NCBI GenBank assembly: GCA_000004985.1
Contig: GG738857.1
Strand: one strand, 5' to 3'
Length of the DNA: 64,000 nucleotides
Origin: Naegleria gruberi
Lineage: Eukaryota
The translations under genes and the position numbers were made by a program. Below the pieces are notes generated by a model. The model saw only the letters and a list, made by a program, of their open reading frames with translations. It searched no databases and had not been told where the DNA came from. Positions 8,877 through 64,000 of the stretch are shown here, in pieces (within the stretch, counting starts at the first letter, position 1; every line of letters starts with the position of its first letter).

Positions 8877-8991
8877 AATAACCAAAGTTTAAACACCTTC
8901 TGACCTAGATGTTGGTTAATTAAGAGATTTTAGGTTCCGATTTATTAAGATATTAAGACATTAGCATATTTTTATGAGGAATGAATAAGAT

Positions 8992-9063: not shown

Positions 9064-9707
9064 AATCATTTTGTTTATTATTCAAAAAACTAGTCTTAAT
9101 TCGTGATAGTTCCTGTTTGAGATTTTCGACCACAAGCTTAGGTCAGAAATTATTTCCTTCCAAACAATCCGATGGGATATCCTGTTGTTTTTCTTATCTA
9201 CCATTGACGCACTTGTCCCTTCTTCAATGAAACTGAATATTTTTAAAATTCTTACTTCATTCCAATAGAAATAGTTCTCATCTTCAACGCTTAGTGTTTT
9301 TAATTAAAAAATGAACAGTTCTAACTAATTTACTAGACTTGGGCTAGTTCCATTGTTTTCGTTTGTAAAAGCAAATGTCGAGATGTGGCCACATTTGACT
9401 CCTCAAAGAAATTCTTCGCTCAACAACAAATTCCATTTAACTTTTTTCGAATCGTAAAATAAATTAACAAAATAATCATGAAGTTAACAAGTATCTAAAA
9501 TAGTTTCTGACTACCATTCTAAACAAATAACTTTTCACAAGAATCATTTTCACATCATCAAGTACCCAATTACCCAACCAAAAAAAAATCATTCAATACC
9601 CTACCTCATCCTAGTCTGGTCAATTGATACGTATTGACGTTAATTTTCACAACAACACTCATCAACGCCTGTTTTCCATCAAAACTAATCAAAACTAATT
9701 CAAACTA

Positions 9708-11741: not shown

Positions 11742-13613
11742 ATGAAATCTGCAGTTAAACCTTCATCATCATCCAAACATTTGTATTACTTTCCACTCAG
11801 CACAATTATCGTGGATGGATCAACAAGAAGTTTGTCATCCATGCTTTCTGAGAAAGCCACAACAACAGAAGAGGAAGTTATTAGAAAGTCAATAATGAGT
11901 AGAAGTAAGAGTGTTTCGTCTGCTTCAGGTTCTTTCGGTTCTACTCAACTTACAGTTGGTCCACTCTATACGAATGATTCGTCATCTGGTTGTAGTAGTT
12001 CTCCTTCACAATTAACTATTGATAGCAATGCAACGTTTACTGAATTTCATGATGGAAGATCATTCACGGTTCCATGCATTGTCGAATTGAGAGATCGCTT
12101 TCAACAATATTTAAAGTCAACTAGTGGAAATTCTGGTGATTTCCTATTGAAATTGCATAAATTAATGTTTTTAGATGAGTTTTATGATCCAACAAGGAAT
12201 AGAAGAAAGAGAATTGAGAATTGTGAAACATTATTCAGAATGTGTGATCAATATTTGACATTGATTCATATTCAATCAAAAAATTCACTTTCCTTTTCAT
12301 TATTAGATACATTTCCATATTTGTATAACTTCGAGGAAATGCAAAAGATTCAACCTGACAATTCCATTTTGAAAAATCACGAATATTTGGTGAAATGGTT
12401 CAGAAAACAATCTGAAAATTTAAAGAAATATTTGTCAGAGAAAGCTAGTCAAGAAATTGAAGTTTCCTCTTCACCTGAAGATAATACTGGAATGTTCTTG
12501 TCACCTTCAGTATCATCAACAACACTAAGTTTTGTAAATTCTCCAACATTGTCATTCCCTGGAAGTGATGTTGGACAGCCACTAGAAAAGACAAATCCCT
12601 CTTCTCAATTATTACTAGAATATTTGGATGAAAATGAATTGAAAATGTTAATTTACATGTTGAGTTCTGAATTGGAAGATTACTTTTCACTTTTTCAAAA
12701 AGCTAATCCCAAGTTTGTTAAAAAGTGGTTGGAAAAGAATGTAAAGAGTTTGCCAAACTATATTATTGACACAATTTCCAAAAAGAGAAAGAAATATTTA
12801 CACTATCATGAAAACTACAAATTAACTGAAGAAGATTTGAATATGAAAACAATTCTAGACTCTGATTTTGAATTCATTCAATATTTGGCCGAACATACTG
12901 AAGATTGGAAGATTCTAATGGATTCAAATCCAATAATAGCAGGATTTAAATCAAAAGAAAATTATTGTAAATTTACTGACATGAAAATGCAAAAATTCGT
13001 TACAACGGTCAATTATTCACTGGAAAATGTATTGAAAACCATGTTTGCTAACATTGAAGAATTAGGAGGTAGTGATAACATGATTGAAAGTTCTGAATAT
13101 CATCACTATACTGAAATTGATCCTTCCATTTCGAGTAGAAAATATTCTACTGTAATTCAAACATCATTGTGGAATTATGGATCAATATTCAAGAAACGTG
13201 CATTGGAAAATGTCATGTCATGCAAGGCAACATTTTGTGGAGATGAAATACAAGATGCCATTCATCTCTACAAGACATGTTCCTATGTTTCTAATAAGAA
13301 TGAAGATTCCAAAGCTCCAATTAAAATTATTGTGGTAGGAGGCAGAATATATTCCAAAATAGATTCAAATAGAACAAGAATTGTAGATGTAAGAATGTTC
13401 AATATTGGTGGGATTGTTGGAAACTTTGATTTTGTAACTTCAAACAAGTTGGTAGTGAAAAAGTCAATTGATGGAATTCTAGAATACTTGAAAAAAGCCA
13501 TGACCAATGCAGAAATGGAAGGTTTTCCAGTTCCTGATAGTTCTAAACACATTTGGAGAACACTAGTCGATTACTGTAGAGTGCATTGTAAAGTAGATAT
13601 TTCTAAATGGTAA
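11742..13613 (+). CDS. Hypothetical protein, member 2 of tandem-duplicated family (paralogue of 9708-11516)
   Basis: 623-aa ORF collinear with the upstream paralogue. The C-terminal halves are also highly similar (ATFCGDEIQDAIHLYKTCSYVSNKNEDSKAP...). Confidence 0.6.
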   Translation: MKSAVKPSSSSKHLYYFPLSTIIVDGSTRSLSSMLSEKATTTEEEVIRKSIMSRSKSVSSASGSFGSTQLTVGPLYTNDSSSGCSSSPSQLTIDSNATFTEFHDGRSFTVPCIVELRDRFQQYLKSTSGNSGDFLLKLHKLMFLDEFYDPTRNRRKRIENCETLFRMCDQYLTLIHIQSKNSLSFSLLDTFPYLYNFEEMQKIQPDNSILKNHEYLVKWFRKQSENLKKYLSEKASQEIEVSSSPEDNTGMFLSPSVSSTTLSFVNSPTLSFPGSDVGQPLEKTNPSSQLLLEYLDENELKMLIYMLSSELEDYFSLFQKANPKFVKKWLEKNVKSLPNYIIDTISKKRKKYLHYHENYKLTEEDLNMKTILDSDFEFIQYLAEHTEDWKILMDSNPIIAGFKSKENYCKFTDMKMQKFVTTVNYSLENVLKTMFANIEELGGSDNMIESSEYHHYTEIDPSISSRKYSTVIQTSLWNYGSIFKKRALENVMSCKATFCGDEIQDAIHLYKTCSYVSNKNEDSKAPIKIIVVGGRIYSKIDSNRTRIVDVRMFNIGGIVGNFDFVTSNKLVVKKSIDGILEYLKKAMTNAEMEGFPVPDSSKHIWRTLVDYCRVHCKVDISKW

Positions 13614-44116: not shown

Positions 44117-46556
44117 ATGTCATCATCAACTGTTCCTGTTCGTTCAGGTTCCCTCAACAAGAAGAAAGTTGTCATTTCCATTGATTTTGGTACATCAAGA
44201 ACTGGTTTCTGTTATTCACTCACCAATGATGTGAAAAAGACTCGAGTTAAGAATACCTCATGGAAAGATGCACCAAGTGGAGTTTCATTCCCAAAGACTC
44301 TCACTCAATTACTTTATGAAAAGAGTGATACAAGAAAACCTGTTGCTTGGGGTTACACTTCACTTGACATGTTGTCAAGAGAATTTGAAGATGAGAGTGA
44401 ATCTGATGAAGATGAAGAAGGTGGTGAAGAGATTCCAGCACAAAATAGCAAGTATTATCATTTCAAGACATTCAAAATGGGATTATTCAATAATCCATCT
44501 GGTATGGTGAAGGATACAACTGGTGTTTTTGAAAAGAATGTTGGTGAATTGATAGTTGACTATTTGAAATTATTATTCCATGATCAGATTAAGCCAACTG
44601 TTGAGAAATCATTGGGATCTAAATTGAATCTTGATGAAGTTACTTGGTGTTTAACAGTTCCAGCCATTTGGAAAGATGAACAAAAATCAGATATGAGATT
44701 AGCTGCTTACACTGCTGGTTTAACAAAGACACCTGAAGCATCTTCTGATGATTTTAAGATTATTCTTGAACCAGAAGGAGCTGCTGCTTATTGTATGGAA
44801 TATCAAGCTTCTAAAGGTAAACCATTGAGAGAGGGCGAATCATTCCTTGTTTGTGATCTTGGTGGTGGTACAGTTGACTTGACATGTCATAAATTTGAAA
44901 AGGCAAGATTGAGAGAATTAGCTGAAGGATCTGGTGATGCATGTGGTTCTACATATTTAGATGATGCTTTTATTATTTATTTGGAAGAATGTTTTGGTAA
45001 GAAATTTGTTGAAACCTTAAGGAAAAAGTATGGCCAAACTTATTTGGACATTTTAAAGATTTGGGAAAGAACAAAAGTTACAACAACAGATTTAACAAAA
45101 GATATTAATGTTGATATGCCTGGTCAATTAAGTAGTTTTTTAGAAAGTGCCAATGTTAAAAGTGATAAATTCAGAGCTAAAAGAGGTCAACTCAAAATTA
45201 CAAGTGAAGCTTTACAAACAATTTATCAAGATTCATTAGAAAAAACAAGAAATCTTGTTGAAAAGCAATTAGAAACAATCCAATCAGAGACTGGTAAAAT
45301 GGTTGATTATATTTTCATAGTTGGTGGTTTTGGTGCTTCCAAAGTAGTTCAAAACTTTCTAATTGACAATTTCTCTTCACAAGTTAAGGGAATTGTAATT
45401 CCAAATGAACCTGCTGAAGCTGTTGTTGATGGTGCTGCATTATTAGGTATTGATGATTCATTAATTTCAACACGTAGAATGAGAATGACTTATGGAGTTA
45501 AAGCTCAAAAAGGAAGTGAAGAAATATTCGATACTTTTGTAATTGCTAATCAAGAACTTGAAGTTGATCAAGGAATTTCAAGAGAATACAAAGTTCAAAG
45601 AGCTAATCAACAAGCTATGAAAATAATCATCTACAGCACTAAATTGAAATCAATTACAAAAGTTGACGAAACTAAATGTCATAAGATTGGTGAAATTCAA
45701 GTACATATGACAGATATGACAGGTGGCATGGATAGAATAGTGAAAGTTACAATGTATTTTGGTAGATCAGAAACTAGAGTTACTGCCATTGAAAAGAATA
45801 CTGGAATTGAGTATAGTGCATTAATTAAGTATGATGGTGAATTATTTTCACATGGTGAAAGTATTGCTGACACTCCACCAGTTCAACCTCACCATTTGTA
45901 AGTATAGAATGTTATATTGAAGTTTACAATTTCTAACTGTTAAAAGAATTTTTGCAAATGATGTTTCAGGATCAATGTGGGCAAGAGATGCTTTACCAAC
46001 AATGAGTTTACTTAAAGTAAGTATTCTTCCATGATGTTTTTTACTAATATTCAATTAGACCTCTCATAATAACAGAGTAGGAGCACTTTATGAAGCATGT
46101 TATGCCTTTTTAGAAACAAGAAAAGAAACTTCAGATATTTCATCGTGTATTCTTCATAATCATGATTCAATCATTATTTATGATAAAAAACCTGCAACTC
46201 CATCACTTGTTTCTGATTACATGATGAAATATAATGCCGACGGTGGCAACAACTTTTTAAAAGTATTCGAAACTGTCGAACAAGTTCTCAAATCGAGTAA
46301 TAACGAGGAATTCAAACCAATAGTTTTCTTTATGACAGATGGTGCTTGGCACGACGACGGAGCACCTGCCTACTTGGAAGGCTTAATGTTAAGATATCCA
46401 GATTTAACAGTTCATGTCATTAATTTGGGTAGTTCAATTAATTTTGAATTGATGAATAGAATTGCAAAGATTGGTAGAGGAACCATTTCAACATCTGGAA
46501 TGAGCGCTGTAGAATTGAAGAGTACCTATCTCAGCTTGCTTCCTTACTTGGATTAA
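44117..46556 (+). CDS. HSPA12-like atypical Hsp70 ATPase protein 2 with C-terminal von Willebrand factor A (vWA) domain, 3 exons
   Basis: Exon 1 44117-~45896: VVISIDFGTSRTGFCYS, ILEPEGAAAYCMEY, FLVCDLGGGTVDLTCHKFE, IFIVGGFGASKVVQNF. Donor tt|gtaagtat. Exon 2 ~45953-46012 (acceptor ...ttaaaag) encodes L-IFANDVSGSMWARDALPTMSLLK (DxSGSM MIDAS motif). Donor gtaagt; acceptor ...acagag. Exon 3 ~46076-46556: VGALYEACYAFLETRKE...NADGGNNFLKVFE...IVFFMTDGAWHDD...VHVINLGSS (vWA fold). Splice phases are compatible across both introns. The ORF-track stop at 45901 is the TAA inside the gtaagt donor. Confidence 0.6.
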
Positions 46557-46659: not shown

Positions 46660-48539
46660 CTACCAATTTGGTTGTGGATTTTTAGTTCTAGATTGATATT
46701 TTCTATCAAACATTTGATATAAATAACCTTCACACATTCCTTGTACTTTGTTGAAATGACATCTAACAAATGGATCAATTTTAGATGCTAAAATAGTTCT
46801 CTTAACATTTGGTCCTAAAATTGGTAATAAGAATTTCTTAAACCACCAATTACCACCTTTAGCATCTAATTGTAAATCAACCATTGTTGCCATAATATAT
46901 GGTGGAATATAAATTCTATAAACACGTGTTTGGAACTCTTCAAATGTTTTGTAATCAATTGTAGAAACATCTCTTCTTAAAATTTCATCTAAAATTAATT
47001 GACATTCTGTCATACATGTAACACCTTGTCCATAGACAGGATTTAATGATCCAACTATTTGCAATTAGTTAATGAATTAATCAATTAGTCAATTAGTAAA
47101 TGAATCAATCTTAATAAATCTTAATAAAATTGCTTACCTGAATCACCAAGTGCAAGGAAATTTTCAAGAACATGTTGATTTCCATTTTCATCCTTATATT
47201 GTGTAATCTTTTCCCAATGATTTAAAACAGTTCCATCCTTCTTATAATTTGACCAATCAATAACTGGACCTTGTTCTAAATCACAATGTTCAAAGAATAA
47301 TTTAGTCTTTTCTGAAATATCAGGTGAAACCTTACTTAAATAATCAATACAATCTTCATGATTCTTAATTTTAACACATTCTGGATTTTTACTACCAGTT
47401 TCACCAATAATAAACATTCCCTTATCTTGTGAAACTCTATAGTAAATCATACCACTTTTAGTTGGAAAACCAACATTACCAATATATGCCCAAACAGGTG
47501 TTTTACCATCTTTTTTAAAGAATCCATCTTGCATATTTGGATCTTTCAATTTGTAAATTGCTGAAGTGTAGGTTGTTGTGAGAATAATCTTACTCTTTTC
47601 CATTTCAAATTTTCTATTAGAATCTTTGGAAAATTCTTCTTCAACCCAAATTGGTGTTTGAGTTGTTAAACCTGAACAATCAATTACTAAATCTCCATAA
47701 ACTTGTTCACCTTCTTGTAATTTAACACCTTTAACACGATGAATAATTTTAGAATCTTGTGTTTGAACCTTTTCAAATATTAAACCACTAACTGTTTGAT
47801 CATCTCTGAATTGAATTTTACCCAATGGTGATGAATTTTCATCAATAGTACTACTATTATTACTACTATTATTACTATTACTATTATTATTGGTGTTGAC
47901 ATTAGTTGAAGTAGATGATTTTCCAATTAATGATGAAGAATTCTTATTAATATTCATAATTAAATCTCTAATATAAGATTCAATTTGATATCTTGTCATT
48001 TGATAACCAGGTGGACAAATAGTTTGACCTTCAATTAAACCACATAATTTATCAGATTTACCATCAATGGCAGCATAATCTGTATTTTCAATTAAAATTT
48101 TAAAAGCTCCCATCTTTTCAATTTCATTAATAAAATCAATATTTAAATAACCACCAAATAATTTCTTGAAAATTGTAATACATCTCAATAAAAAAATGTG
48201 AGTTTGAGTTCCTTGTGGAGCAGTTGACTATTACAATAATATTTAATATTAAATATTAAATTACAATATTTAACATACCTTGTTAGTTTCATATCTCTTC
48301 TTTTCAAATAAAATAACATTTTCAAAATGGAAACAAGCATTGAGTGCAGTTGTAATACCACCAATACTACCACCAATAATAATACATGTACCTTTCTTTT
48401 TCTTATCTGAAACTTGTCCAAGTTTAGAATTTTCCAATTTGACTTGAGCATCAAAGAATGGTTTAATATTATTTAACCAATAATAATAGGCATAACATGG
48501 AAGTGCAACTAGTGCAGACAATGCAAGATATCCTAACAT
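46660..48539 (-). CDS. FAD-dependent monooxygenase-like protein (PHBH fold), multi-exon
   Basis: N-terminal exon 48270-48539 has TM segment plus GTCIIIGGSIGGITTALNACFHF (GxGxxG). Middle exon 47121-48188 has an N/S-rich insert and DLVIDCSGL. C-terminal exon 46660-47064 has IVGSLNPVYGQGVTCMTECQLILDEIL (degenerate GDAAH...GQG motif region). Confidence 0.55.
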
Positions 48540-49180
48540 TTTGGACTATAGTATAGTTTAGGTGTTGAATTAATAATTATAAATATATTTGTATATTGGA
48601 GTGGTGTTATATGATGAAGTGGAGAAGAGTAATATGAATCAACCATTCGTTATATGGTTTAATAGTAATAGTTGTTGTTGTGATAATGATGAGAGGAATG
48701 GAGCGGCTATTAACACTTACTTTTTTTTCTATTCGAAAGATTTTAATTGATGCGTGCTGGAATGCTGTCATTCGATTGATTTGGAAAGCTACTTTGAAAG
48801 ATGGTAGTCAAAATACGGTATGAAACCTTCAACAGTTGATTATCAGATCTGATTACGAATTTTTCAAAAGGCTTTATGAAATTACTGTGAAATAATTGAT
48901 GAAAATATTATTTCTCAGAACTGGTAATTATTTGGTACCGAGTATTACGACATCTACTGTTACTTTACAGTTTTCCGATTTCAACAGCATCATCAAATGA
49001 GAAAAGCCTTATTCCTTGTTACTCCTTCATCAAACACAGATTGTGCTCACTATTAAAAATCAAATGCATTTTTTTAATAATCTAGATTATTGATAAGAAT
49101 TTTAGCAAACCAAAATGCAATCGAATTAAAATCTGCTCAAACAACTAGTTCTTTCGAATACGTTATTCATGATTGAAAAT

Positions 49181-49339
49181 GGATGTGTAGCTCAGTTGGA
49201 AGAGCAAGGAAAACTAGTCCAAGCTGTGTATCAAGTGAAGTGGATGGGAGATGGATGGGAATAAAACTTGATTAAAAAACAGCTAGACTCTGGGACAGAT
49301 CCCAGGCCCCTGGTCGCACGATCGAAACGTGTCACATCC
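49181..49339 (+). ncRNA. tRNA-like Pol III element: tRNA 5' half and 3' half separated by ~85-nt insert (intron-containing tRNA, pseudogene or tRNA-derived element)
   Basis: 5' GGATGTG-TA-GCTC-AGTTGGAA-GAGC (acceptor + D-arm, A-box) and 3' GCACG-ATCGAAA-CGTGT-CACATCC (T-arm + acceptor complementary to GGATGTG; GATCGAAAC T-loop as in eukaryotic initiator tRNA-Met). I could not pair a canonical anticodon stem across a position-37/38 intron. Confidence 0.4.
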
Positions 49340-49413
49340 AATAATATTAATTTTTCATATAAATTGATTGGCAAACAAATATCAACTATGACTAAAATAG
49401 TTTATTTACAATT

Positions 49414-50790
49414 TTAGTAACTTTCTATTACACACGCTTTTAAAGATGAAATAATTATTTCAAATTGTTGTGAACAATTAATATTATGATTTCTTTCTTT
49501 GCAAAATTCAATTAATGGAATAAAATTAGCAAGAAAATGAGTTGTAAAAAGAGATCTCTCACCAATTTCAGTTTTAAATTCATTCTCCAAATTGCTAGAA
49601 TCACAGCAATCGTCACAAATATCAAATGAATCATAACCATCCACTGTTGATTGATAAAATCCTGAACATGTTTGATCACATATTTTACATGTCTTTGTTG
49701 ATTCAATTTTAAAAATATCAAAATTATTTCCATACTTTTGTTTCATGTTTGGAATCAAGTTACTTATTTCTGATGGTAAATGATTTAATAATTCAAAATA
49801 TTGTAAAAATTCAACAATACTTCTTCCTACACATGTCAATTTGTGATCATTTAGGTATGATTTGATTAACCATTTTAGTGATTCTTCCATATTTGGCAAT
49901 GTACCAACACCAACACAATACATGTAAGCTACTCCATATTGTGCAAAGCAATAGTTTTGTTTGGCTGATTTTAACAACCATTCAAGTCCAAGTTTTAAAT
50001 CTTTTTCATAATATTCACCAGAATAGTAATAAATACCAATCCAATATTGAGCTAAACAATTTCCATTTCCAGCAGATTTGAAATACCAATCTGTTGCTTT
50101 TTTGAACTCTTCATTAAGTCTATAATGTCTAGCGAGTTTATGTTGATATTTACTATTTCCTAATTCAGCTCCTTTTAAAAGCCATTTTTCTTTCATTTCT
50201 GATGAATTTTTGTTTAATTTTTTCATTTTCTTTATGGCAGGAAAATAATTTAATTCTGCTGATTTTTCCAAAAATGTAATATCCTTATTATATAAATAAA
50301 TTAAATAGTTAAAAATTGGATTATTGGTTTGTTTGGCACATTTTTTATAAACCTTGTTCAATTTAATTCTACTTTTAATATTTGGTAAATCAATTTCAAA
50401 TTTTTTTAATTGTTTAATAATTGAATTTGGAGAAATAATTAATTTTTCCAATACTTTTAAACTAAAATCACCACTTAAATATAATTTTTCCAATTTTGTA
50501 AATAATTTACAATTAAAAATAGTTTTTAACATTTCAGTATTTACATTATTAAAACTACATTTACAAATTTGTAATACTATTTGACTATTACAAAATTTTT
50601 CCATATCCGAAAGTGAAACAAAACGTGTAGAAACCATTTTCAATTTTAAATAGTAATAAATAGACATATCAGACCAATATTTACAAACAAGTCTATGAAC
50701 CAACCATTCATTTGGTAGATAACTTGAAATGTGTGCTAAAATCTCAGGTGGAATTTCATCATTGAAATTTCGTTTTGATAAATTAGACAT
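49414..50790 (-). CDS. F-box / Sel1-like repeat protein
   Basis: N-terminal F-box (IPPEILAHISSYLPNEWLVHRLVCKYWSD). Central Sel1/TPR-like repeats (AELGNSKYQHKLARHYRLNEEFKKATDWYFKSAGNGNCLAQYWIGIYYYSGEYYEKDLKLGLEWLLKSAKQNYCFAQYGVAYMY). Cys-rich C-terminus. Confidence 0.65.
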   Translation of the reverse strand: MSNLSKRNFNDEIPPEILAHISSYLPNEWLVHRLVCKYWSDMSIYYYLKLKMVSTRFVSLSDMEKFCNSQIVLQICKCSFNNVNTEMLKTIFNCKLFTKLEKLYLSGDFSLKVLEKLIISPNSIIKQLKKFEIDLPNIKSRIKLNKVYKKCAKQTNNPIFNYLIYLYNKDITFLEKSAELNYFPAIKKMKKLNKNSSEMKEKWLLKGAELGNSKYQHKLARHYRLNEEFKKATDWYFKSAGNGNCLAQYWIGIYYYSGEYYEKDLKLGLEWLLKSAKQNYCFAQYGVAYMYCVGVGTLPNMEESLKWLIKSYLNDHKLTCVGRSIVEFLQYFELLNHLPSEISNLIPNMKQKYGNNFDIFKIESTKTCKICDQTCSGFYQSTVDGYDSFDICDDCCDSSNLENEFKTEIGERSLFTTHFLANFIPLIEFCKERNHNINCSQQFEIIISSLKACVIESY

Positions 50791-51206
50791 TTTTTTTAAA
50801 GTTGATCAAAACTCCACAATTTCTAATTCTATTAATAAAAGTGCAAAATCACCATCACGTTTATCACGTTTTGTCAAGTTAGAAAGTTCCAACTCAATTT
50901 TATTTAAATAAAATTTCATTGTTTTTGAATATTACTTAATCATTGAGAGTTGATGAAACCAGGCTTCAATACATGTCTTAATGAGCCTTCCGAGTTCTCG
51001 CATTGGATTAAAAAAATTGTTTAATATTCTTTACAATCCATTCAACAATGAAGGCTTGATTGAAAGGCTTTCATGAATTAGAACTCATGAACTTGATATT
51101 AATATCATTAGAAAAAATATCTTTTCATCATCAACTACCACTCTCTTGTAGAAATATTCATCATCCGATCACATCAAAGTAGTACTGATAGAAACAATTT
51201 GCTATT

Positions 51207-52668
51207 TTGTTCATGGGTAATAAATCTTTTAAACAAGCGAACAACAAATCAATTTCATCAACAAGTTTATCATCACAACCCAATTCCAATTTTAATAACA
51301 ATAACAACAACAATAATAACATGTATCAAAGAAATACTCATCATCTTAGAACTGGTGGGAAGAGTGTAGTTTTTGGTTGCGGATATAATTCAGCATCATT
51401 ACTCGGAGTATCACACTCTGATGTTGAAGATAATGGAGTTCATGGATCAAATTCCTTTTCTCAAGATGTAACACAATTTGTTTTCTTATCAACATTACAA
51501 GAATTATTGAATAATGATTCTCCTGGACAACATGTTTGTCAAATTGTTGTTCAATTTTCCAAAACCTACTTTTTAACATCTCATGGTCATGTCTATACTT
51601 CATTTCCATTAGCAAGAGATGTTCAATTTGATAGTATTTTACCTGATCGTGTTGTGGAAATGAGATCAGGACAGAATAGAACATTATTTAGAACTGAATT
51701 TGGTCAAATTTATGTAAAAGCAGATGGTCCACTCTCTAAAATTACTGGAGTTACTAATACACAAGTAAATAATGTAAAATTATTTGGAGTTGGTGGTTTA
51801 CATTACTGGTTATTAGATGATGAAACTAATCGTTTATATGGTGAAGGAGAAATTAATGGAGCTAGTGTTGAAAAAGTTATAGAATTGAATGATTATTTAC
51901 AGAAAGATGAAAAAGTTAGAGATATTGTTACAGGTGGTAATTCGTATGTTTTTTTTATTTCATTTTATAGTAACAATTATATATAACATTGTTTAAATAA
52001 TGATGAATTGAAATTTGAAATTTGATAATAGATTTGTTTTAATAACAAATAAGAATAATATTTATGTATATGGAGAGAAGGAAGCTTTTGGATCAACAGT
52101 TGATGAACATTATTCTAAACCAACAAGATTAAGACAATTTGATGGAATGGTAAAATCAGTTGTTTGTGGATGGTATTTTACAATTATTTTAACATTTAAT
52201 GGACAATTATGGATGGCAGGTAGAAATACATATCAACAACTTTCATCTAAAAATCTATCATCTCATGATAATGTTGTTCAATGGTTTATAGATGATTCAT
52301 TAGTATTAAATCCAAATGAAGAAATTGATCAAATTGGATCTGGATCAGATCACGTTTTAATATCAACAACAATTGGAAGAATTTTCACAAGAGGAATGAA
52401 TACATATGGTCAACTTGGTAGAGATAATAGAACTCAATCTGGAGTATTTATGGAACCAAGTTTTAAAAATCAAAATTACAAGGAAATTATTTCTAAATTT
52501 GTTGGACCAAAATTTTCAATTTCATTTGCAGATAATAATTTTAATACTTTAAGTTCCTTTTTAATTATTCATTCAGTTAGAGAATCAAAGGAACTTATTC
52601 AAATGAGATCAAAACTTTTAAATTGTTCAAAACAATCTTTATTATCAGATTTAGTAATTTTACATTAA
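51207..52668 (+). CDS. RCC1-repeat (regulator of chromosome condensation-like) protein, 2 exons
   Basis: Exon 1 51207-51943 (donor gtatgt), exon 2 52024-52668 (acceptor gataatag). Repeated GxNxxGQLG-type blades (GRNTYQQLSS, GMNTYGQLGRDNR, YGEGEINGAS). Confidence 0.6.
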
Positions 52669-53247
52669 AACATTTTAATTTATTATTTAATATATTATTT
52701 TGATGATTGTAAAGTTAAAATGATGATCATGTGAGGATTAGTTATTATTGATTCAAGTCATTAGAGATAGATGAATAATAATTGATGAAATTTGAATGAA
52801 AATTTATTGTTTTTAGAATGTACTGTCAACATAATTTTTCCATAAAAGTAACAATTGTGAATCTTCGTAATGTTAAATATCAAAAATCAAAAACTGATTG
52901 ACGTTGTGTAAAACCAAACGTCATCAAAAATCGACTCGTCATTAAAAAAAATATCTGAACAGCTCTTAACAATAACAATCATCATCACCTGTTTCTGATA
53001 ATAAAATTATTATTATTTGATTATTATCGGTTTCTAATAACAATAGAGGTTAAGTGGCAGTAGAGTAATATAGAAGTTTTTTATAGAAGGAGTAGAAACA
53101 AATCATCATCATCATCATCTCTCTCCAGTTACTCACTCCATAACTATATTGTTATCATCATCAATATCATCAATTTATTATTATTATTAATAATATTAAA
53201 TAGTGTACATATTACAATAATAATAATAATAATATTAAAAAATTAGA

Positions 53248-54992
53248 ATGTCAGGTTTTTCATCACAATCTATTCAAGCATCACTTGTTAGACCATCCAA
53301 ATATAGACATTTAAATGGATTTGAAACTAAAAGTGAGAGATATGAAAATATTAATGTTGGTTATGGTCAAAAATTAAGTAATACATTAAAAACCAATGGT
53401 TCAATCTATGCATTACCATTTAATGTAACAGGTGGTACTTTATCATTTAAATATTTAAATGATTATGGTAGATGGGATGAAAAATTACAAAATTATGGAA
53501 TTATTAAGGCTCACAAGGGAAGATTATCAGATTTTGATATTTCCCCTTTTAGAAATAGAGATCATTTAGTAACTGTTTCTAATTCTGATAATATTATTAG
53601 ATATTGGAAATTACCTACAAATAATAATGATAATGATAATAATAGCAATGATATTTCTTCTTCTAATATTACTTCTACTAATACTTCCAATATAAATGGT
53701 AATAATACTATATATAGAACCTATGAAGAAATGGATTGTGATTTGGAATTAAATGATACAAATAATACAAAATCAACTATTAGTAGAATATCATTTAATC
53801 CACTTGTTGATAATTCACTTGTTAGTATTCAAGGAGATTTAATCCATTTTTGGGATGTTGAAAAAAAGAAAATTTTAAATTCAATTCAAAATTTACCAAA
53901 TCCATCAATTTCTAGTAAAACATTACCAACAGTTGAAAGTTTAGGATGGAATGAATATGGTAATTTATTTATATGTGGTACAAATGATCGTTCCATTAGA
54001 ATTTATGATATTAGATTATCTTCCAATTATAGTAATAATAATAATAATAATAATAATCAATCTAATAATCAACAAATATGTATAACTGAAGGACATTCAA
54101 GTATGAAACCATTTCAAACATTATATTGTGAAAATATGTATATATGTAGTGTTGGATTTTCTAAAAATGGAGGTAGAGAATTAGCCATGTATGATATTAG
54201 AAAAGATTTGAAATGTTTACAAAGAATTTCCATTGATAATGGTGGTTCAGTTTTAACACCATTTTATGATTCAGATATTAAATTACTATATTTAGTAGGT
54301 AGAGGAGATGGTAATATTAGATTTTATGAATTAGAAGGTGGTATTATGCATTATTTAAATGATTATAATTGTCAATCTACATCTGCATCTGTTGATTGGT
54401 TACCAAAATGGAAATTAAATGTTAATAATTTTGAATTGGCTAAATTTTTAAGATTAACAAATGAAAAAACAATTGAAACTCTTTCAATGAGAGTTTCTAG
54501 AAAATCAAATATTGAACAATATTTTCAAGAAGATATATTTCCAGATACTTGGAATGGTCAACCTATTTATAATAATACTAATCAATGGTTAAATACTATT
54601 ATTAATAATAATACTACTTCTATTAATAATAATACTATACAAAGTAATATTAATAATAGTAATGGTAATGGTAATGAAAATTTGAATGAAAATGAATTAT
54701 TACAAACTAGACCAACCATGTCATTAAAACCATCTGATAAAATATCTATCTATGATGTACCTATTAGTGAAGGTGGTAAAATTAGACCATCCACTACTAA
54801 TTTAAGTAAATTACATTCATCATCATCTTTAAATAGTATTGAAAATACTCCAACTACTACATTAGATACCCCAACTACTATTACAAATTATAATACAAAT
54901 GAACAAGTTGATGATGAATTTAAAGATTTAAATGAAAATCAACAATTTGATGACAATGAAGAAGAAGAAGAAGAATTAATTACCATTAATAC

Positions 54993-55023
<31 letters not shown>

Positions 55024-58000
55024 GAACATAATCATAATAATTTTAATGATTTAAATGATATAGATTCATTAATGTCACCAACAGAAGCAACTTCCAAATC
55101 CATTTCCATTGGATTAGTTTCTAGTTTAGGTAAAAATGTAGCACTTGCATCAGCTCATATTCCATGGTATAAAAGAATTACAATGGGAATGGGTTATTAT
55201 TTAGGAATGGCAATGTTTTTAATATTTAAATTTACATTCATTTCAATACCTGTTTGGGTTTATCGTAAATCTACTGGTTACACTCCTCCACCTATTAAGG
55301 AACGTTTCGAACAAGTACCTGTTATTAAGGTTATTAAGAAACCTTCAAGAAAAGTTTCATCAAATATCAATTCTTCTACAAGTGTTAAACGTAATATTGT
55401 TGGTGGTGGTGCTAATACTAATAATAATAATACTGATAATAATAATATAACACCTACTACACCAAATGATTATATTAAATCATCAGTATCTAATACATCA
55501 TTATCATTAACTCCACAAACTCCAAGTGGTAGCGGCAATAATTTAATCATTTCAGATCCACTTGCAAGTGAATCAAGTCGATTACTATCACGTGAATATG
55601 GTAGAATTATTATGGAAGAATATATTGGTAAATTAACTAAAGAAGATATATTTCCTAAAAGAGCACATGATAAAGATACCAATCTAAAACAAGTTCTTGA
55701 AATTGATGTAGTTGACTTGAAAAAAGGTCTCACTCATGTACTAATTTGGGTAAAAGGACGTAAAAAATCGAGAGCAACACTTGCACCACTTTATTGGACA
55801 AGTTTAAATCATAATGATTGTTTCATTTTGGATTGTGGTAAAATTTGTTACATTTACAATGGACAATATTCTAACAAATTATGTAGAGCTAAAGCATTAG
55901 ATATTTCACAAATGATTAAATATAAGGAAAGAGGTGGTGATTGTCAAGTTGTAATTATTGATGGTATTGATTATTCTAATAATGGAAATAATTCTAATAA
56001 TAATTCTAATAACAATGACATGACACCATTATATAAAAAACAAGTATTACAATTTTGGAAAGAATTAGGATTAACAAGTGAAAATGAATTTTGTGAATTA
56101 TTAAATATTCACTTTCCTAAAAAGGAAGATTCTAGTAGTAGTAGTAATAATAATGTATTAAACAGATTAAAATTAACAGATAAATCTAAATTTACATCAA
56201 AAGATGAATTAAATGATGATTTATATCAACAATTTAATGATTTAGGTCAAAGATTATATAAATTAAATTCAGAAATCTTTGAAGAACTTCCACTAAAAAT
56301 AGAATTAAATGAAACACAAGATGAATACATAGAAAGAATATCACCATATATGTTAAGTGTTATAAAATTAAATCAAATACCAGGTGGTGAAATTGTAAAT
56401 TTAAAAGAATTAGAAAATTTATTAAATAATGAAAAGAATTTAATTGATCCAAATAAGGTATCAGAAATTACACAACCATCACATCATGTTTTACATTCTG
56501 ATCAATGTTACATTTTTGAAAGTTTATTTACAAATGAAGTTTTCTTTTGGAGTGGAAAACAAAGTAATTTAAATATTAGAAAATGGGGAATTGCTATTGC
56601 TAAAAAATTAGCACAATATAGATCTTTAAATAATAATCCATTTTCATTGAAAAATCCAATTTTACAACGTTTTAAATCTATTTTAAATAATTCTATTAAT
56701 ATTACTATAAATGGAAGTAATTCTATAAATGGAAATCAATTACCTAATAATAGAAAATATTTATCATCCATTACACGTGTTATAGAAGAAGGTGAACATT
56801 CTATTTATAAACAAAAATTTAGTGATTATCCAGGAATGTTAATGATTCAAACACAATCACAAGAATCACGTGGAAATGTTGCAGAAAAAAAGAAACAATC
56901 AAAAATTAATTTTTTAGAATTATTAAAATCTAAAAATAATTTAAAAGAAGAATTAAAATCTAATTCACAAAAACAATTTATTGATCCAACTTTAGTAACT
57001 ACCATATATAGTAGTAAAATTAGAATGTGGAGAGTGAGTGATTTTCAAAAAATACCATATCAACATTTAGGTCATTTCTTTACAGGTGATGCATTTATTA
57101 TTTTATTTACCTATACAAAAATAGAAGGTGGTAAATCTTTCCATAAATTATTCTTTTGGCAAGGAAGAGATATTAAAAAGAAAGATAAAGGAACATCTGC
57201 ATATAAAACTGTTGAAATTAATGAAATGATTGATGAAGGTGTTGTAGAAAATCAAATTAGAGTTGTACAAGATAAGGAACCTAAACTATTTTTAGATTTA
57301 TTTAAATTTAACCCAAATAGTATGGAAGAGAGTACTACTATTGAAAATGATAAACATTATAAGAAGGTACCTTATTTTATTCATAAGGGTAAATATAGAC
57401 CTTCTGTTTTGGAATCTTTTGAAAAGGCTAACAAATTATCTTCTATTATTGGTAATATTTCTAATAATAATAATAATGGAAATATTAATCCAAAATCATC
57501 ACCATTACCAAAATTAAATATTTCTAATAATACAAATGATAATAATAATACAAATAATACCACTACAACTACACCAACAACACCTACAATTTCAAATGAT
57601 GAAGAAATGAATCTTGCACCTGTTAAATTATTTACTTCCATAAATGGAAATTTAGATGAAAATGAAAAATTTTCACCTCAAATTTTACAATTCCAAACAG
57701 AAATGATTGAAAGAATAATTTCTAAAAATATAAAATTAGAATATTTAAAATCCTATGATTTTAGAAATGGAATTTTATGTGAAACTGATGATTTACATCC
57801 AAATTATTTAAATCCATTTAATTTAATAATTTTTTCAAATTTAAATTTTAATGTTTATTTAAATAGAATTGAACTAAATAAGGAAATTGAACAAGATGAT
57901 TTAAAAACTATTATTTATTATGGAAAATATTGTAAAGAATCTGATAAGAAATTTATTGAAAATAATGTTTTAAATTTATTTAATAATAATAATATAATTA

Positions 58001-58908
58001 CTATAAATGGAAATAATCAAGAATTATTAGAAAATGTATTTACTAAGGAAATTGATCCAACATTTGAATATTTTATTTCTAGATTTAATAATTATTTAAA
58101 TACTTTTGAATTTAAAAATAATTATAATATTTCCTTTTATAATATTAATGATCATTCAGGTGAATTTACTTTAAATAGATTGGATCCATTTGGTGAAATT
58201 GATTTATCTTCTTCACAAGCCTTTATTTTAGATTGTCTTGATTTAGAAGGTAAAATCTATGTTTGGATTGGAATGTTATGTAATATTGAAACAAAGAAAT
58301 TTGCACTTTCAACTACCATTCAATATTACTATACATGGAAATCACAAACTTGTAATGATGAATTTTATAAGAAGAAACCTCAAAATGATGACATGGATGA
58401 TTTTGATCCAAGTAAATTTTTACAAAAATCAGATGAACAATCATTACTTGTCATTCAAGAAATGGAAGAACCACAAGAATTTACAAAACATTTCATTTCA
58501 TGGTCAATTAATTCAACTTCATTCAAAGTTAGATTTAAACAATTACAAGATCCAAATTTAATTTCAAAGGGTTTTGTTAAAACACCAAGAACTCCAAGAA
58601 GATCAAATATTAATGTTCAAATTTCTAAACATGAAAAGAATTTATTTGAACATTCTTCATCCATTTTTGAAATTGAACATTGTTCAAATGTTTTACAATT
58701 ATATAACAAATTATTTACTCACAAAACTTATAGTTATGCAATTTTAACAAGTGGTGCAAATATTCCAGAAGGTATTGATAAATCTAAATTAGAATCTTAT
58801 TTATCAAATGAAGAATTCCAAAAAGTATTTGGAATGGATAAAAAGAAATTTGCTACTTTACAAAATTGGAAACAAACCTCTTTGAAAAAGGAAAAGAATT
58901 TATTTTAA
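53248..58908 (+). CDS. Villidin-like giant actin-binding protein: coronin-type WD40 N-terminus, gelsolin repeats, C-terminal villin headpiece
   Basis: Single 1886-aa exon. N-terminus SKYRHLNGFETKSERYENINV...DFDISPFRNRDHLVTVSNSDNIIRYWKLP (coronin signature). Gelsolin-like repeats in the C-terminal half. Terminal LSNEEFQKVFGMDKKKFATLQNWKQTSLKKEKNLF (villin headpiece). Contains poly-N, His10 and a ~30-aa hydrophobic segment (GMGYYLGMAMFLIFKFTFISIPVWVY). Confidence 0.8.
54034..54057. repeat. (AAT)n microsatellite within coding sequence (poly-Asn)
   Basis: aataataataataataataataat in frame within the villidin-like gene. Similar AAT/CAA/CAT runs recur throughout the coding regions. Confidence 0.8.
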
Positions 58909-58975
58909 ATCACTCGCATATATTATTATTAAATTTGTATATTTTTTAAAATGATCATATTCTTTCAAAAGAAGA

Positions 58976-61670
58976 TTAATAATTTGTACATCCATTTTCC
59001 TTCATGTACTTTTCTGCATCAAGTCTAGAAGTAAATGATTTAAATTTTGCTCCTTGAAATTGATCAACTTGAATTTTACATTCGTCCCACGTATTAAATA
59101 TACCTGTTCTTCTACCAATACAAACACAATATAATTTACCACTCTTTGACATTCCACTACTTCCACTTCCACTTCCACTACTACCATAACTTTTAGATGT
59201 ATTACTGTTACTGTTGGATGTTATTGCTCTTCCAGGATTAAGTTTTGATTTTTTCATAATTTGTGAATGATAAGATGTTCCACTCTGAGTAGAATTTGAA
59301 TCATTTTTACGTTTCTTTGTATTTCCACCACCACTTGTAAAATCTGATAAATCTAAATTTTGTAAAGTTTCTTCAAATATTTTTCTTCTCTTTTCAAAAG
59401 ATTCTTCATTCTTTTTTAATAAATTTTCAATAAATAAATCTTTTGAACTTGTATCTTGTGCTGAATATTGTTCTTGTTTTTTAAGTTTGTTATAAAAATC
59501 AATTGCTTCTCTATTTATATGTCTAGTTAAATTATATGAATTAAAATTTGTAACTTTTAAATATTTCATTGTTTTTGCACGTGATAATGCAACATAGATT
59601 TGACCTGGACTAAACACTGTTGATAAATCAATTACACATTTTTGTAATGTTAATCCTTGTGTTTTATGTACTGTCATGGCTATTATTATTAAATTTAAAA
59701 ATATAAAATATTAAATATTAAATATTAATATAAATTAAATATTAATATAAAAATATTAAATTATTAAATATTAAATTAAAAAACATACCATAAGCTAATT
59801 TTAAAGGAATTTGAATTCTAACACCTTTAGATTTTTTTGGACCATCTGTTTCAAAAATGGTAGGATGTACAATTTTAATAATTTTAATTTCCTTTCCATT
59901 TTCTTCTCTTGTAAAAACCACTTTTGGAAATAATTCACCATTTTCATTAATATATTGTTCAGCATATTGTTTAATATTCTTATTTGAACTTTGTAAATCA
60001 CTTGGTGTTTGTTTAATAAAACCAATAATTTCACCTCTTGTTCCATTCACTAATTGATTTGTAAAATCATTTTTAATTATCATTACTTGTGCTCCAATAC
60101 GTAAATTAATTTCCTGTGATGCATTAGATGAATTAAAATTTGTTAATATAGCACTTTTAATATATTCTTTAATAGTTGGATGATCTACTTTTGGATCATA
60201 ATCTCCATATGAAAAAAATGTTTGATCTCTATAAGTATATTGTGGTGGTGATAATTTTAATAATTCTGTATCATTCACTGTATCTACATTCTTATTTAAT
60301 GTATGAATAACTGTTGCCTTTTCAATTCCATCAAATTTATTATTTTCTAATCTTTTTAATGTTTGTACTATATTATTATTAGTTTGACAACATCTAATAG
60401 AATTTAATATTGATATCCATTCTTTTTCTTCCTGTCTAAATACATTACTCAATTCAAATGTATATTTAATTGTACGTTCCCAACATGTAGCTTTAAAACA
60501 CATTTCCTTTTTTTGATAAATAGTTTCACCATGTTCATTTTTAAATGATTTACTAACAGGTGGTAACTATAAATATATTTGATAGATTTTGAATAGATAT
60601 TGTAGTAGAATTATTATTATTAGATTAGATTAATGTGAATATGAATATTATATTTTGAGATTAAATTGAATGGTATTAGATTTGATTGGTGTGAATATGA
60701 TTGAAAATCATTAAAAAAAACAAACCTGTAAGAAATCACCACATAAAATAACTTGAATTCCACCAAATGCAGGTAATTGTTTCATAATAACTTCTTTAGG
60801 TGCTCTAGATGCAGCAATTTCAAAGAAACATCTAATTTCAGTTGCAATTGATTCTAATTGATCAAAATATTGACCATCAATCATTGAAATTTCATCAACA
60901 ATTAAAACATCAACACTTCTCCATTCTTTTTCATTTCTCCAAGCTGTTTTACTATCAACTTTACCATTATCCAATGTTCTAATACCTGCAAATGAGCTAA
61001 TTAATTTTTAAATAAAGTATTACAATATAATTACAATGTTAAATATAAGTATACTATAATAATTAGAAATATTTACATACTGTATAGTTGATCCACCAAT
61101 ATTAACAGCAGAAATACCAGTTGAAGCAGTCACCACAACTTTCTTTTGTTGAACATTTGATAAAGTTTGAATAATACATTCTAATAAGAAACTTTTACCA
61201 GTTCCAGCAACACCTGTAATAAAAACTGAATGTCCTTCCATTACACATTTCAAAACATTCATTTGTTCATCACTTAATTTTGATAACAAGCCTTGATAGG
61301 TATCACATTGATTTAAATCAAAACTAGCTAATTCGGGAAATATTGTTGAAGGTAATTCTTGTTGTTTACTTTTCAATTTCATATCATTTGCAAATGATGT
61401 AATTGATCCGAGTGTTTTTGGAGGTGCTTTAGTTGTTGTTGCTGTTGATGTTGTTGTACTATTACTAACACCAGTACTAAAGGAAGGCTTTTTAGATGCT
61501 GAAGCTTTCTTAATTTTAGGTGGTGCACCTCCTCCGGAAGAAGGCATTGATCTTGGTTTTGGCTTTGCATTTGCAGGTACAAATACTACTCCATTCTTTT
61601 CTAACATTATGATGATGAATTTGTGTTCAAAGCCTTTGTTGAATGTTTGAAGGCTTTTTTTTTGATTCAA
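58976..61670 (-). CDS. Pif1-family 5'-3' DNA helicase with C-terminal RNase-H-type hybrid-binding (Cauli_VI/HBD) domain, 4 exons
   Basis: Exons (minus) ~61081-61670, 60726-60996, 59789-60566, 58976-59679. Introns have gtatgt/gtttgt donors and ...ttag acceptors, phase-checked. Helicase motifs: I FITGVAGTGKSFLL; Ia TASTGISAVNIGGSTI(H)SFAGI (split by intron); II DVLIVDEISM; III ILCGDFLQ|LPPV (split by intron); IV/V GAQVMIIKN...LVNGTRGEI; C-terminal PLKLAY|AMTVHKTQGLTL...YVALSRAK. Last ~50 aa KLYCVCIGRRTGIFNTWDECKIQVDQFQGAKFKSFTSRLDAEKYMKE match the RNase H1 N-terminal hybrid-binding domain consensus. N-terminal Met uncertain. Confidence 0.75.
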
Positions 61671-62226
61671 AGTGTTTTTAACGTTCTATTAAAAATTAGA
61701 ACATTTTGGCGGGTTGAACGATTCTTGAACTAAGACACTTCTCAATAGAATTTATTAACAGGTAACAATGTCGAAATAACTTTATGATTAAGGGCATCCT
61801 GCTAACTCCCACTGATTTAAAAAGTCAGACGAAATTCACTAAAGTGGTAGTAGCATTGAATAATAATAAATAATTTAATTTTAAAATTGTAAAACGAAAT
61901 GATTATTATTCAATAATATCTTCACTGTTGGAGCACAATTTCCAATAATAATGCGATCATCAATGTCATTGTCATTTCCTTTCACATCATAATCACAAAA
62001 AAATCACTGATTCAAATCTATTCAATTAGCCTTTGTATTTGACTCTACTATTGTTGTTTCTCTGATTTTAACGTTTGATTCTCTCCAACTCACCTCTATT
62101 GGAGCCTTCATAACTTATAATACTCAACAGCGCTCTCTTTCACGAAATATCACAACACCTCATCAATAATAATTCATTGAAAAAAAACAATTCTATTGTA
62201 TCATATATATATTGTAGAGCAAAGAG

Positions 62227-63675
62227 ATGAATAACCGATTACTTGATGATGATCATGACGATGATAATGATTCACTCCTTACACCTGGATTAAATCAACA
62301 ACAACAACAACAACAAGCCTTCAGTAAGTCAACAAATCCAAACTCAACTAGTAGTTTACACGACCGATATGATGATGATGATGATATTTCTGGTGATGAA
62401 TATTTACCTCATAATTCACTATTATTGAATAATCAAAAAGACTCCAATACAACACAAGCCTCTAAAACAAATAAGAAATGGTGGAATTTAAAAAAGGATC
62501 GTAAATCACACGTCGTTTGTTGGATGATGATTTTAGGATCTGGATTATTATTGACTTCTATTGGTATCGTTTCAATGGTTTTATTAGTCATTTACTCTCC
62601 AACTCCAAAGGAAATGTATGTTTTCATATCGTTTTGATATATTTAAATAATAATATTATTTTTTACTTCAATATTTTTTATTCAATTAAATGAATGAAAA
62701 AATTTTGTAATAATTTTAATAATAATTTTAATAATAATTTAAAAATAGTTTGAATGGTACAAGTCCAATTAGTGAAAAACAATGGAAAGAAATAGTATTA
62801 GAAACATTTGGAGTAGTGAGTGGATTTGTTATTGGTATTGGAATAGTTTTATCAGTTACACNNNNNNNNNNNNNNNNNNNNNNNNNNNNNNNNNNNNNNN
62901 NNNNNNNNNNNNNNNNNNNNNNNNNNNNNNNNNNNNNNNNNNNNNNNNNNNNNNNNNNNNNNNNNNNNNNNNNNNNNNNNNNNNNNNNNNNNNNNNNNNN
63001 NNNNNNNNNNNNNNNNNNNNNNGCACAATTGTCATCTCAATTGAATCACAACAAGAAACAGCAAGTCAAGCTCAAAGAGAAGTTGGTACTAAATCAACTT
63101 CAGTGATTGCTGTATTGAAGAATATTAATTTTGTAACAAAATTAAGAACTGCCTCTATTACATTATATCCAATTTATCCATCAACATTGAATCCATCTGT
63201 TACAATACCATATAATGAAAGTATGAGAATTGTTGGATATAAATCATCTAATACTATTTCATTCACAGTTACAAGTTTAACAATTATTGGTGAAGTATTG
63301 GATAAATTAATTGAATTGGGTGTAACACAAATATCAAGTATTAATATGCAAGCAAATGAAACAGCTGTTAATAATGCACGTGAACAAGCTCTTTCATTGG
63401 CTGTACAAGATGCTAAATCTAAAATTGAAAAAGTTGTTGCAACATTGAATCCTGATTTAACCATTGAAACTATTAGAAGTAGAATGTATACCTATGATGT
63501 TAATATTGATAGTGTTAATAGACCAATTCCAATCGCATTCCCTTATTTTGCTCAAGGTGCTTCATATAGAATGGATGCTGCTCAATCACAATCTGTTCCA
63601 GTAGTAGGTGGTGATCAGACTATTGATTCATATGTTACTGTAAAGATGGTTTTTAGACAACAACAACAACAATAG
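62227..63675 (+). CDS. SIMPL/DUF541-domain protein with N-terminal TM segment, 2 exons, interrupted by assembly gap
   Basis: Exon 1 62227-62615 (acidic/poly-Q N-terminus, TM helix MMILGSGLLLTSIGIVSMVLLVIY, donor gtatgt), exon 2 from 62749. The 160-N gap at 62863-63022 lies inside it. C-terminal region ...SQAQREVGTKSTSVIAVLKNINF...NNAREQALSLAVQDAKSKIEKVV...SQSVPVVGGDQTIDSYVTVKMVF resembles the DUF541/SIMPL fold. Confidence 0.55.
62863..63022. other. Assembly gap (160 N)
   Basis: Run of N inside the predicted CDS. Confidence 1.
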
Positions 63676-64000
63676 AATATTTGAATTATGATTCCTTATT
63701 GATTTTTTTGAGATTAATTTGAAAGACCTTTTTGTATTTTTTAATAATAAATTGCGAAACTTTTTTGTCAAGTTTTTGGAAGAAATTTCTGACAAGCCTC
63801 TTGTGAAGATAACTTGAAAGGCTTTGTTCTTCGAGCAAAAAATAGAATATCACCACTCAAAAAAATACCTAAGTGATCCACCTAGTGATTCACCCCAACA
63901 ACTGTAAATAACAATCATTCCGAATCAAAGCCTTTGTACAATATGTCCCGTAAAACAACCTCTCAAGAAGAAAAGCTCGACATTGTTGTTGACTTTTTCC

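Follow-up and report, generated by a model that had tools for sequence, protein, structure and literature searches.

The window, that is, the whole stretch of 64,000 nucleotides of Naegleria gruberi nuclear DNA that was analysed, has a GC content of ~31%. The element studied here occupies positions 49181-49340 on the plus strand and is housed in a 1.2-kb intergenic gap, which is limited on one side by the start of a minus-strand gene (47121-48188, reaching ~48227 by homology) and on the other by the stop codon of an F-box/Sel1 gene at 49414. No ORF of more than 49 aa overlaps the element. The F-box/Sel1 ORF (49414-50790, minus strand) matches an N. gruberi protein deposited at NCBI with 100% identity over 458 aa, and a coronin/villin-type ORF further along (53248-58908, 1886 aa) is 100% identical to N. 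gruberi 'coronin'. The features of the element and the other RNA genes of the window are listed in Table 1.

Several properties of the window are recorded here for their own sake. Three Pol III genes, for tRNA-Ser(CGA), 5S rRNA and tRNA-Glu(UUC), are found on the plus strand within 3.1 kb (5978-9064), with ORFs between them; the interspersion of the 5S gene with tRNA genes indicates that 5S is dispersed here and not restricted to the rDNA unit. The last 14 kb (50001-64000) has a GC content of 0.22-0.27, compared with 0.29-0.36 for the rest of the window; its genes (villidin-like, PIF1 helicase) are nonetheless conserved and syntenic in other Naegleria. Between 40399 and 45901 there is a run of adjacent ORFs, at least three of which share divergent Hsp70-like actin-fold ATPase motifs (IDFG[ST]S.., GGGTVD), while only the last one (44117-45901) attains Pfam HSP70 (E = 1e-14). 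This run looks like a tandem array of paralogues, partly broken or split by introns.

Table 1. Features of the element and other RNA genes of the window.
Feature	Position	Strand	Basis or remark
Acceptor stem, 5' strand GGATGTG	49181..49187	+	7/7 Watson-Crick with 49333-49339
U8-A9, D arm GCTC-AGTTGGAA-GAGC (49190-49205), A26	49188..49206	+	A-box equivalent TAGCTCAGTTGG; D loop has A20
83-nt insert	49207..49289	+	long imperfect hairpin in MFE folds
GC-rich hairpin CTGGGA-CAGA-TCCCAG	49290..49305	+	stem equals initiator-type CUGGG/CCCAG; loop of 4-6 nt, no U33
10-nt linker GCCCCTGGTC	49306..49315	+	ends in the usual ..GGUC, with C48; sequence inspection, MFE fold
T arm GCACG-ATCGAAA-CGTGT	49316..49332	+	A54 and A60; B-box equivalent
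Acceptor 3' strand CACATCC, discriminator A73 (49340)	49333..49340	+	no encoded CCA
T5 run, candidate RNA polymerase III terminator	49351..49355	+	11 nt past the discriminator
tRNA-Ser(CGA)	5978-6058	+	ARAGORN/Rfam
5S rRNA	7438-7556	+	Rfam
tRNA-Glu(UUC)	8991-9064	+	ARAGORN/Rfam

The tRNA frame and its Pol III signals

The first-pass annotation had described an intact 5' acceptor and D arm, GGATGTG-TA-GCTC-AGTTGGAA-GAGC (49181-49205), and a complementary 3' T arm and acceptor, GCACG-ATCGAAA-CGTGT-CACATCC (49316-49339). Both descriptions are correct, and the 3' acceptor strand is a perfect match to the 5' strand. The acceptor, D and T arms are present in the element with their conserved tertiary nucleotides: the 16 base pairs of the three stems are all intact, with zero mismatches, and all universal and semi-invariant tRNA positions outside the anticodon arm have been kept (U8, A14, G15:C48, G18, G19, A21, G10:C25, C11:G24, G53, U55, C56, G57, A58 and C61). 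The upper half of the tRNA L-shape is thereby complete, comprising the acceptor/T minihelix, the nucleotides of the D/T elbow, the A box and a B-box-like T arm.

The significance of this frame was assessed with a pattern that demands closure of a 7-bp acceptor stem, a D arm, and a T arm whose loop reads.TCRA..; it was run over both strands of the 64-kb window. Only the true tRNA-Glu gene and the element were matched, and no match was obtained in 300 composition-preserving shuffles. The 5' 25-mer and the 3' 24-mer of the element are each unique in the window. The tRNA frame of the element is real, far beyond chance. Its GC content (0.50-0.69) can be compared with 0.39 for the insert and with 0.29 and 0.16 for the flanking intergenic DNA.

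The sequence signals of a Pol III gene are also present, namely the A box TAGCTCAGTTGG, the B-box-like T arm with C56 and the T5 run. The terminator context resembles that of the true Pol III genes of the window; T4 runs are found a few nt downstream of the tRNA-Ser and tRNA-Glu genes and directly at the end of the 5S gene. The spacing between the A and B boxes is ~119 nt, which is longer than optimal for a type-2 Pol III gene.

The domain between the D and T arms

In the element ~110 nt of non-canonical sequence separate the D arm from the T arm. The MFE fold retains the acceptor, D and T arms and adds a hairpin at 49216-49289, followed by the hairpin at 49290-49305 and then the linker. The hairpin of the insert is built from the pairings AGTC/GACT, AGCTGT/ACAGCT and ATCAAGT/ACTTGAT, and its 29-nt purine-rich loop carries two copies of GGATGGGA (49242-49249 and 49253-49260). 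The two shorter hairpins that had been noticed before, CTGGGA-CAGA-TCCCAG at 49290-49305 and CCAGG-CC-CCTGG at 49302-49313, are both there; the latter is an alternative pairing that takes in part of the linker. If the CTGGGA..TCCCAG hairpin is taken as a remnant of the anticodon arm, the 83-nt insert falls between positions 26 and 27. Taken as a whole, the central domain (49206-49315; insert, GC hairpin and linker) did not differ in stability from shuffles (z = -0.47), and no Rfam family, Vault included, was matched at E<=10 over 49100-49420.

Decoding capacity was assessed with ARAGORN, Rfam, an enumeration of deletions and scans for splice motifs. With default ARAGORN (with or without introns) and with Rfam at the gathering threshold, only tRNA-Ser(CGA), tRNA-Glu(UUC) and 5S rRNA were called in the window. 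The covariance-model match to a normal cloverleaf with a standard intron, named in the first-pass annotation as a result that would refute its reading, was sought with the Rfam tRNA model (RF00005), which yielded nothing on the element at the gathering threshold (29 bits) and nothing at E<=10 over 49100-49420. Submitted alone, the 5' 35 nt gave a partial match to this model (model positions 1-31, 12.5 bits, E=1.1) and the 3' 55 nt gave none. With neither a default ARAGORN call nor an Rfam match, a canonical tRNA was rejected. A selenocysteine tRNA (tRNA-Sec), a C/D-box snoRNA in the insert and a class II tRNA with the hairpin as its variable arm were considered by eye and by deletion enumeration, and none of them fits.

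A canonical intron at 37/38 was rejected as well: default ARAGORN -i is silent, and the element read in this way would have the stem AGGAA/CCCCU, with 3 bp and two A.C mismatches, closing the loop AACUAGG (anticodon CUA, A33). When its threshold is relaxed, ARAGORN reports a tRNA-Trp(CCA) with an 88-nt intron after position 31, whose anticodon stem is limited to AGG/CCU and two A.C mismatches and which has a C at position 33. The same threshold also calls a tRNA-Tyr(ATA) at 32036 and a tRNA-Gln with a 195-nt intron at 44496, both inside long ORFs. We judged the tRNA-Trp model unreliable on account of its 3-bp stem, the lack of U33 and the two extra calls within ORFs.

Two exhaustive searches covered other intron positions. 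First, all joins of 5' and 3' parts into a 17-nt anticodon arm were enumerated, with 0-2 linker nt and with short or long variable regions; no join yields a stem of 5 bp together with a loop of canonical type (U33, purine 37), which rules out a simple insertion into a normal tRNA. Second, every possible segment was removed from the element (10,296 variants) and ARAGORN was allowed to seek a further intron in the anticodon loop. Default ARAGORN accepted 73 of these variants. Together they show 19 different anticodons, among them Pro GGG, Trp CCA, Phe AAA, Gly CCC, His and Ser, and no unique solution; the strong frame is what lifts weak middles over the ARAGORN threshold. Two-intron models were rejected on this disagreement and on the absence of splice motifs.

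Archaeal-type bulge-helix-bulge tRNA introns at positions other than 37/38 occur in Cyanidioschyzon and in nucleomorphs. For this motif (two 3-nt bulges with a 4-bp helix between them at the exon-intron junctions), every junction was scored out of 12. The junctions that restore a cloverleaf scored 0-4, with a background mean of 3.5, and the maximum in the element (9.5) was found at junctions that do not restore a tRNA. In the positive control, a two-intron tRNA-Asn of a giant virus, the top junction scored 10.5/12 and lies exactly at the true junction; cutting 23 nt there restores a perfect anticodon stem, after which ARAGORN recognises a tRNA-Asn(GUU) that has a canonical intron of 25 nt. A bulge-helix-bulge intron in the element was thus rejected, with no motif at any restoring junction and the control detected. 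Taken together, the weak and contradictory deletion solutions and the absence of a splice motif, with the control positive, mean that the reading as an intron-containing tRNA is not supported. Of the earlier proposals, the lack of a canonical anticodon stem was borne out by ARAGORN, Rfam, the deletion enumeration and the scans, and the suggestion of a long or non-canonical intron was not supported by the same results (no Rfam match at E<=10, no restoring single deletion, contradictory multi-intron solutions, no splice motif). The wording 'disrupted tRNA gene / tRNA-derived Pol III element' agrees with what was found, i.e. an intact frame, A box, B-box-like T arm and T5 run without a decodable anticodon arm. 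For a SINE-like element, the sequence examined gave no support. No description of the element or of unusual Naegleria tRNA introns was found in the literature.

Unusual tRNA introns were found in environmental and viral DNA. The giant-virus tRNA-Asn(GUU) used as control comes from an AT-rich MAG (L048:5210-5330, minus strand; identical in L068, L119 and L122; IMG/VR GVMAG-M-3300009068-12, 12742-12862, plus strand). It contains a 23-nt intron right after 26/27 and a canonical 25-nt intron at 37/38, and it is invisible to default ARAGORN until the first intron is removed. The 23-nt intron has a near-perfect bulge-helix-bulge, in which the 3' strand of the D stem (GAGC) pairs with GCUC of the intron. 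This gene has an A54/A60 T loop and is part of a tRNA cluster, adjoining tRNA-Gln and tRNA-Ile(UAU). A second case is a tRNA with the amber-reading anticodon CUA and a 76-nt intron at 32/33, called by default ARAGORN in L077 (1731-1877, minus strand) and L125 (204-350, plus strand). Its frame carries A20, A54 and A60, and a ~75%-similar copy of the anticodon-stem-plus-intron segment is located ~200 nt upstream. The two loci differ by one base within the putative intron (ACCCC versus ACCTC). L125, classed in IMG/VR as a 48-kb viral contig, carries genes for a family-B DNA polymerase of 1609 aa and for a RING-H2 protein. At the end of the L077 copy there are telomere-like C4A2/C3A3 repeats. These two tRNAs may be more interesting than the element itself.

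Parentage, copies and conservation

Features that mark eukaryotic initiator tRNA include A20, A54 and A60 as well as an anticodon stem closed by three G:C pairs (PMC3950347). All three adenines are present in the element, and the stem of its GC hairpin is identical to the initiator CUGGG/CCCAG, with three G:C pairs at 29-31:39-41. It lacks A1:U72 (G1:C72 instead) and C3:G70 (A3:U70 instead), and there is no CAU in the loop context. These features were compared with those of 224 distinct tRNAs in the loci examined. In this biased sample, a GGG/CCC-closed anticodon stem together with a GATCGAAA loop occurs only in initiator-type tRNA-Met, and the GATCGAAA loop alone is found also in six tRNA-Asn and one tRNA-Asp, plus an elongator-like tRNA-Met with a 52-nt intron. 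The D stem of the element (GCUC/GAGC) resembles that of the tRNA-Asn genes that share the loop.

Because the GATCGAAAC loop is found in elongator tRNA-Asn, tRNA-Asp and an intron-containing tRNA-Met from environmental DNA, the T loop alone is not diagnostic. The initiator-type T loop claimed in the first-pass annotation therefore stands in part: A54/A60, A20 and CUGGG/CCCAG speak for it, and the absence of A1:U72 and CAU and the presence of the same loop in elongator tRNAs speak against it. An initiator tRNA-Met identity was rejected on the missing A1:U72 and CAU. Given a frame that is a mosaic with an initiator flavour, the parent tRNA of the element cannot be named.

Among the environmental contigs, GATCGAAAC (A54/A60), often accompanied by A20, was seen in elongator tRNA-Asn(GUU) (L036, L046, L072, L102 and L128) and in tRNA-Asp(GUC) (L040), and in the L039 family it belongs to an elongator-like tRNA-Met(CAU) with a 52-nt intron at 37/38. 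Elongator tRNAs with this loop often adjoin initiator tRNA genes in these contigs.

No second copy of the element or of its insert was found in the 64-kb window, no insert-like sequence in any locus examined outside it, and no homologue of the element in ~165 kb of related heterolobosean and metagenomic DNA. A metagenome-wide scan with a pattern of a D arm, 75-105 nt and GATCGAAAC returned 118 loci, mostly tandem tRNA genes. In three families the ends pair into a 7-bp acceptor stem, but none of these is related to the Naegleria insert. The metagenome and viral scans thus provided architectural analogues but no homologue of the Naegleria insert, and the 3' 24-mer of the element had no match in viral contigs. 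Neither target-site duplications nor an A-rich or LINE-like tail flanks the element.

Conservation of the locus was assessed from both sides. Synteny of the window with the loci of the villidin-like orthologues in N. lovaniensis, N. fowleri and Willaertia magna holds only from ~53 kb onward, and the element is absent from the local neighbourhoods flanking these orthologues. Homologues of the flanking gene 47121-48188, reached through a representative-protein search, are located on two contigs of a metagenomic Naegleria-like relative (54-70% aa identity), in N. fowleri, in Willaertia and on one further metagenomic contig; the local neighbourhoods of all these loci are free of a tRNA or tRNA-like frame. 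No orthologue of the F-box/Sel1 gene 49414-50790 exists in the protein database; apart from the gene itself, the best matches are 26-37% identical over 18-39% of its length. Since the villidin-like/PIF1 synteny with N. fowleri, N. lovaniensis and Willaertia ends at ~53 kb (leaving the segment 48189-53247) and the F-box/Sel1 neighbour lacks an orthologue, the element is located within a lineage-specific segment.

Interpretation and comparison with known systems

In effect, a tRNA gene has here exchanged its anticodon domain for a non-canonical one of ~110 nt, consisting of an 83-nt hairpin insert, a short-looped GC hairpin and a 10-nt linker. From its sequence, we consider it probable, with moderate confidence, that it is a lineage-specific, tRNA-derived unit of Pol III type in N. 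gruberi that no longer decodes, i.e. a disabled tRNA gene. N. gruberi is reported to have 924 tDNAs (PMC2888827), a setting in which defective copies are expected; this number, the absence of the element from the relatives checked and the unremarkable structure of the central domain make a disabled tRNA gene the most likely reading. What argues against it is that uniform neutral decay would rarely spare the frame so fully. Deriving the middle from a canonical tRNA takes at least four separate changes (the insert, the short loop, the lost U33 and the longer variable region), and a flawless frame with an altered middle hints that the upper half is under selection, or else that the change came about in one complex, recent event.

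The acceptor/T minihelix is the part of a tRNA that is read by RNase P, RNase Z and the CCA-adding enzyme. TFIIIC and TFIIIB would probably still load on the element despite the A-to-B spacing of ~119 nt, so that a Pol III precursor of roughly 170-175 nt would result. Trimming by RNase P, RNase Z and the CCA-adding enzyme would leave a tRNA-like RNA of ~160 nt. Such an RNA would be unusable in translation and would most probably be a non-functional pseudogene transcript, cleared by tRNA surveillance. If the element is merely a disabled tRNA gene, its value lies in annotation: relaxed finders mislabel it, for instance as a tRNA-Trp whose intron is 88 nt long, and the locus should carry a non-decoding flag.

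A clearly less probable, though serious, alternative is that the element has been exapted as a functional tRNA-like ncRNA. Its upper half would have been selected for synthesis by Pol III, trimming by RNase P and RNase Z, a CCA tail and export, while the long hairpin and the loop with the repeated GGAUGGGA would carry a new role, such as protein binding, a decoy or a TFIIIC-bound chromatin element. The combination of zero stem mismatches and all core invariants with a thoroughly non-canonical anticodon domain is consistent with this, as are the intact A box, B-box-like element and T5 run and a middle that is not explained by simple insertion; moreover, A20/A54/A60 is known to form a coherent substructure in the elbow of initiator tRNA (PMC3950347). 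However, the central domain is no more structured than shuffles, no Rfam family (Vault included) is matched at E<=10, and no homologue is present in the related DNA examined, the element being single-copy in the window. Naegleria is furthermore reported to be without full-length major vault protein (PMC12547018). The specific form of this alternative, in which N. gruberi would make a ~160-nt tRNA-like Pol III RNA with a selected, initiator-flavoured upper half and a new functional module of ~110 nt, is proposed tentatively and is rather doubtful. If true, this selected RNA would be a protist counterpart of tRNA mimics of the vault RNA or mascRNA type. Selection on the flawless upper half would imply that a tRNA scaffold was reused to carry a new RNA domain in a deep-branching eukaryote, and would offer a handle on the substrate rules of Pol III and tRNA processing in Heterolobosea.

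It is unlikely that the element is one copy of a dispersed tRNA-derived repeat in N. gruberi (SINE-like or a MITE-carrying family). The high tDNA count of 924 (PMC2888827) and the inverted-repeat arms of the insert would fit such a repeat, but the element is single in 64 kb, has neither an A-rich or LINE-like tail nor a flanking target-site duplication, and is not accompanied by copies in the heterolobosean loci examined. Unlike SINE heads, it also has a tRNA 3' half at its far end that closes the acceptor stem.

It is very unlikely that the element is a true tRNA gene from which one or several non-canonical introns are spliced to leave a decoding tRNA. The relaxed tRNA-Trp(CCA) model, a variant of it with the junction at 29/30 (stem AGGGA/CCCCU) and the 73 deletion variants admitted by the strong frame are in favour of this reading, and long or oddly placed introns do exist, as in the giant-virus tRNA-Asn (26/27 plus canonical) and the tRNA(CUA) with its 76-nt intron. 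The best single-intron models, however, have stems of 3-4 bp with A.C mismatches and C33 for U33, the relaxed threshold is the one that calls two tRNAs within long ORFs, the solutions conflict in 19 anticodons, and the bulge-helix-bulge is missing from the restoring junctions and present in the control. In addition, the 37/38 reading requires a CUA anticodon with A33 in an organism in which nothing indicates that a stop codon has been reassigned. Chance resemblance or an assembly artefact has a negligible probability, as the frame was obtained in 0 of 300 shuffles and a flanking ORF is 100% identical to a deposited N. gruberi protein.

Compared with known systems, the element shares with eukaryotic initiator tRNA-Met A20, A54, A60 and CUGGG/CCCAG with three consecutive G:C pairs (PMC3950347). 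It differs from it in G1:C72, A3:U70, the GCUC/GAGC D stem, the absence of CAU, a hairpin loop of 4-6 nt, a variable region of 10 nt and the 83 nt inserted after position 26. Intron-containing tRNA genes are alike in having a long extra segment between intact ends, into which an ARAGORN intron model can be forced, but the element has no intact anticodon stem, no U33, no unique mature product and no bulge-helix-bulge motif. Vault RNA and other tRNA-derived Pol III ncRNAs, which have a type-2 promoter, share tRNA-like A and B boxes, a terminal stem formed from the two ends, a variable centre and a length of ~160 nt with it. In contrast to Vault RNA (RF00006), the D and T arms of the element are true tRNA arms with all tertiary-contact nucleotides. 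Vault RNA, which associates with TEP1 and major vault protein, was rejected, there being no Rfam match at E<=10 and Naegleria being reported without full-length MVP (PMC12547018). The closest likeness of a disabled tRNA gene is to the tRNA pseudogenes and 'tRNA-lookalike' loci of eukaryotic nuclear genomes, with which the element has in common a tRNA origin, A/B-box-type sequences, a T-run and the lack of a decoding cloverleaf; its genome is reported to be rich in tDNAs. Typical tRNA pseudogenes show scattered mismatches or truncation, whereas here the frame is flawless and only the anticodon domain is damaged, with an expansion of ~85-90 nt. Overall, the element fits best among tRNA pseudogenes or tRNA look-alike loci of Pol III type, and no new category is required.
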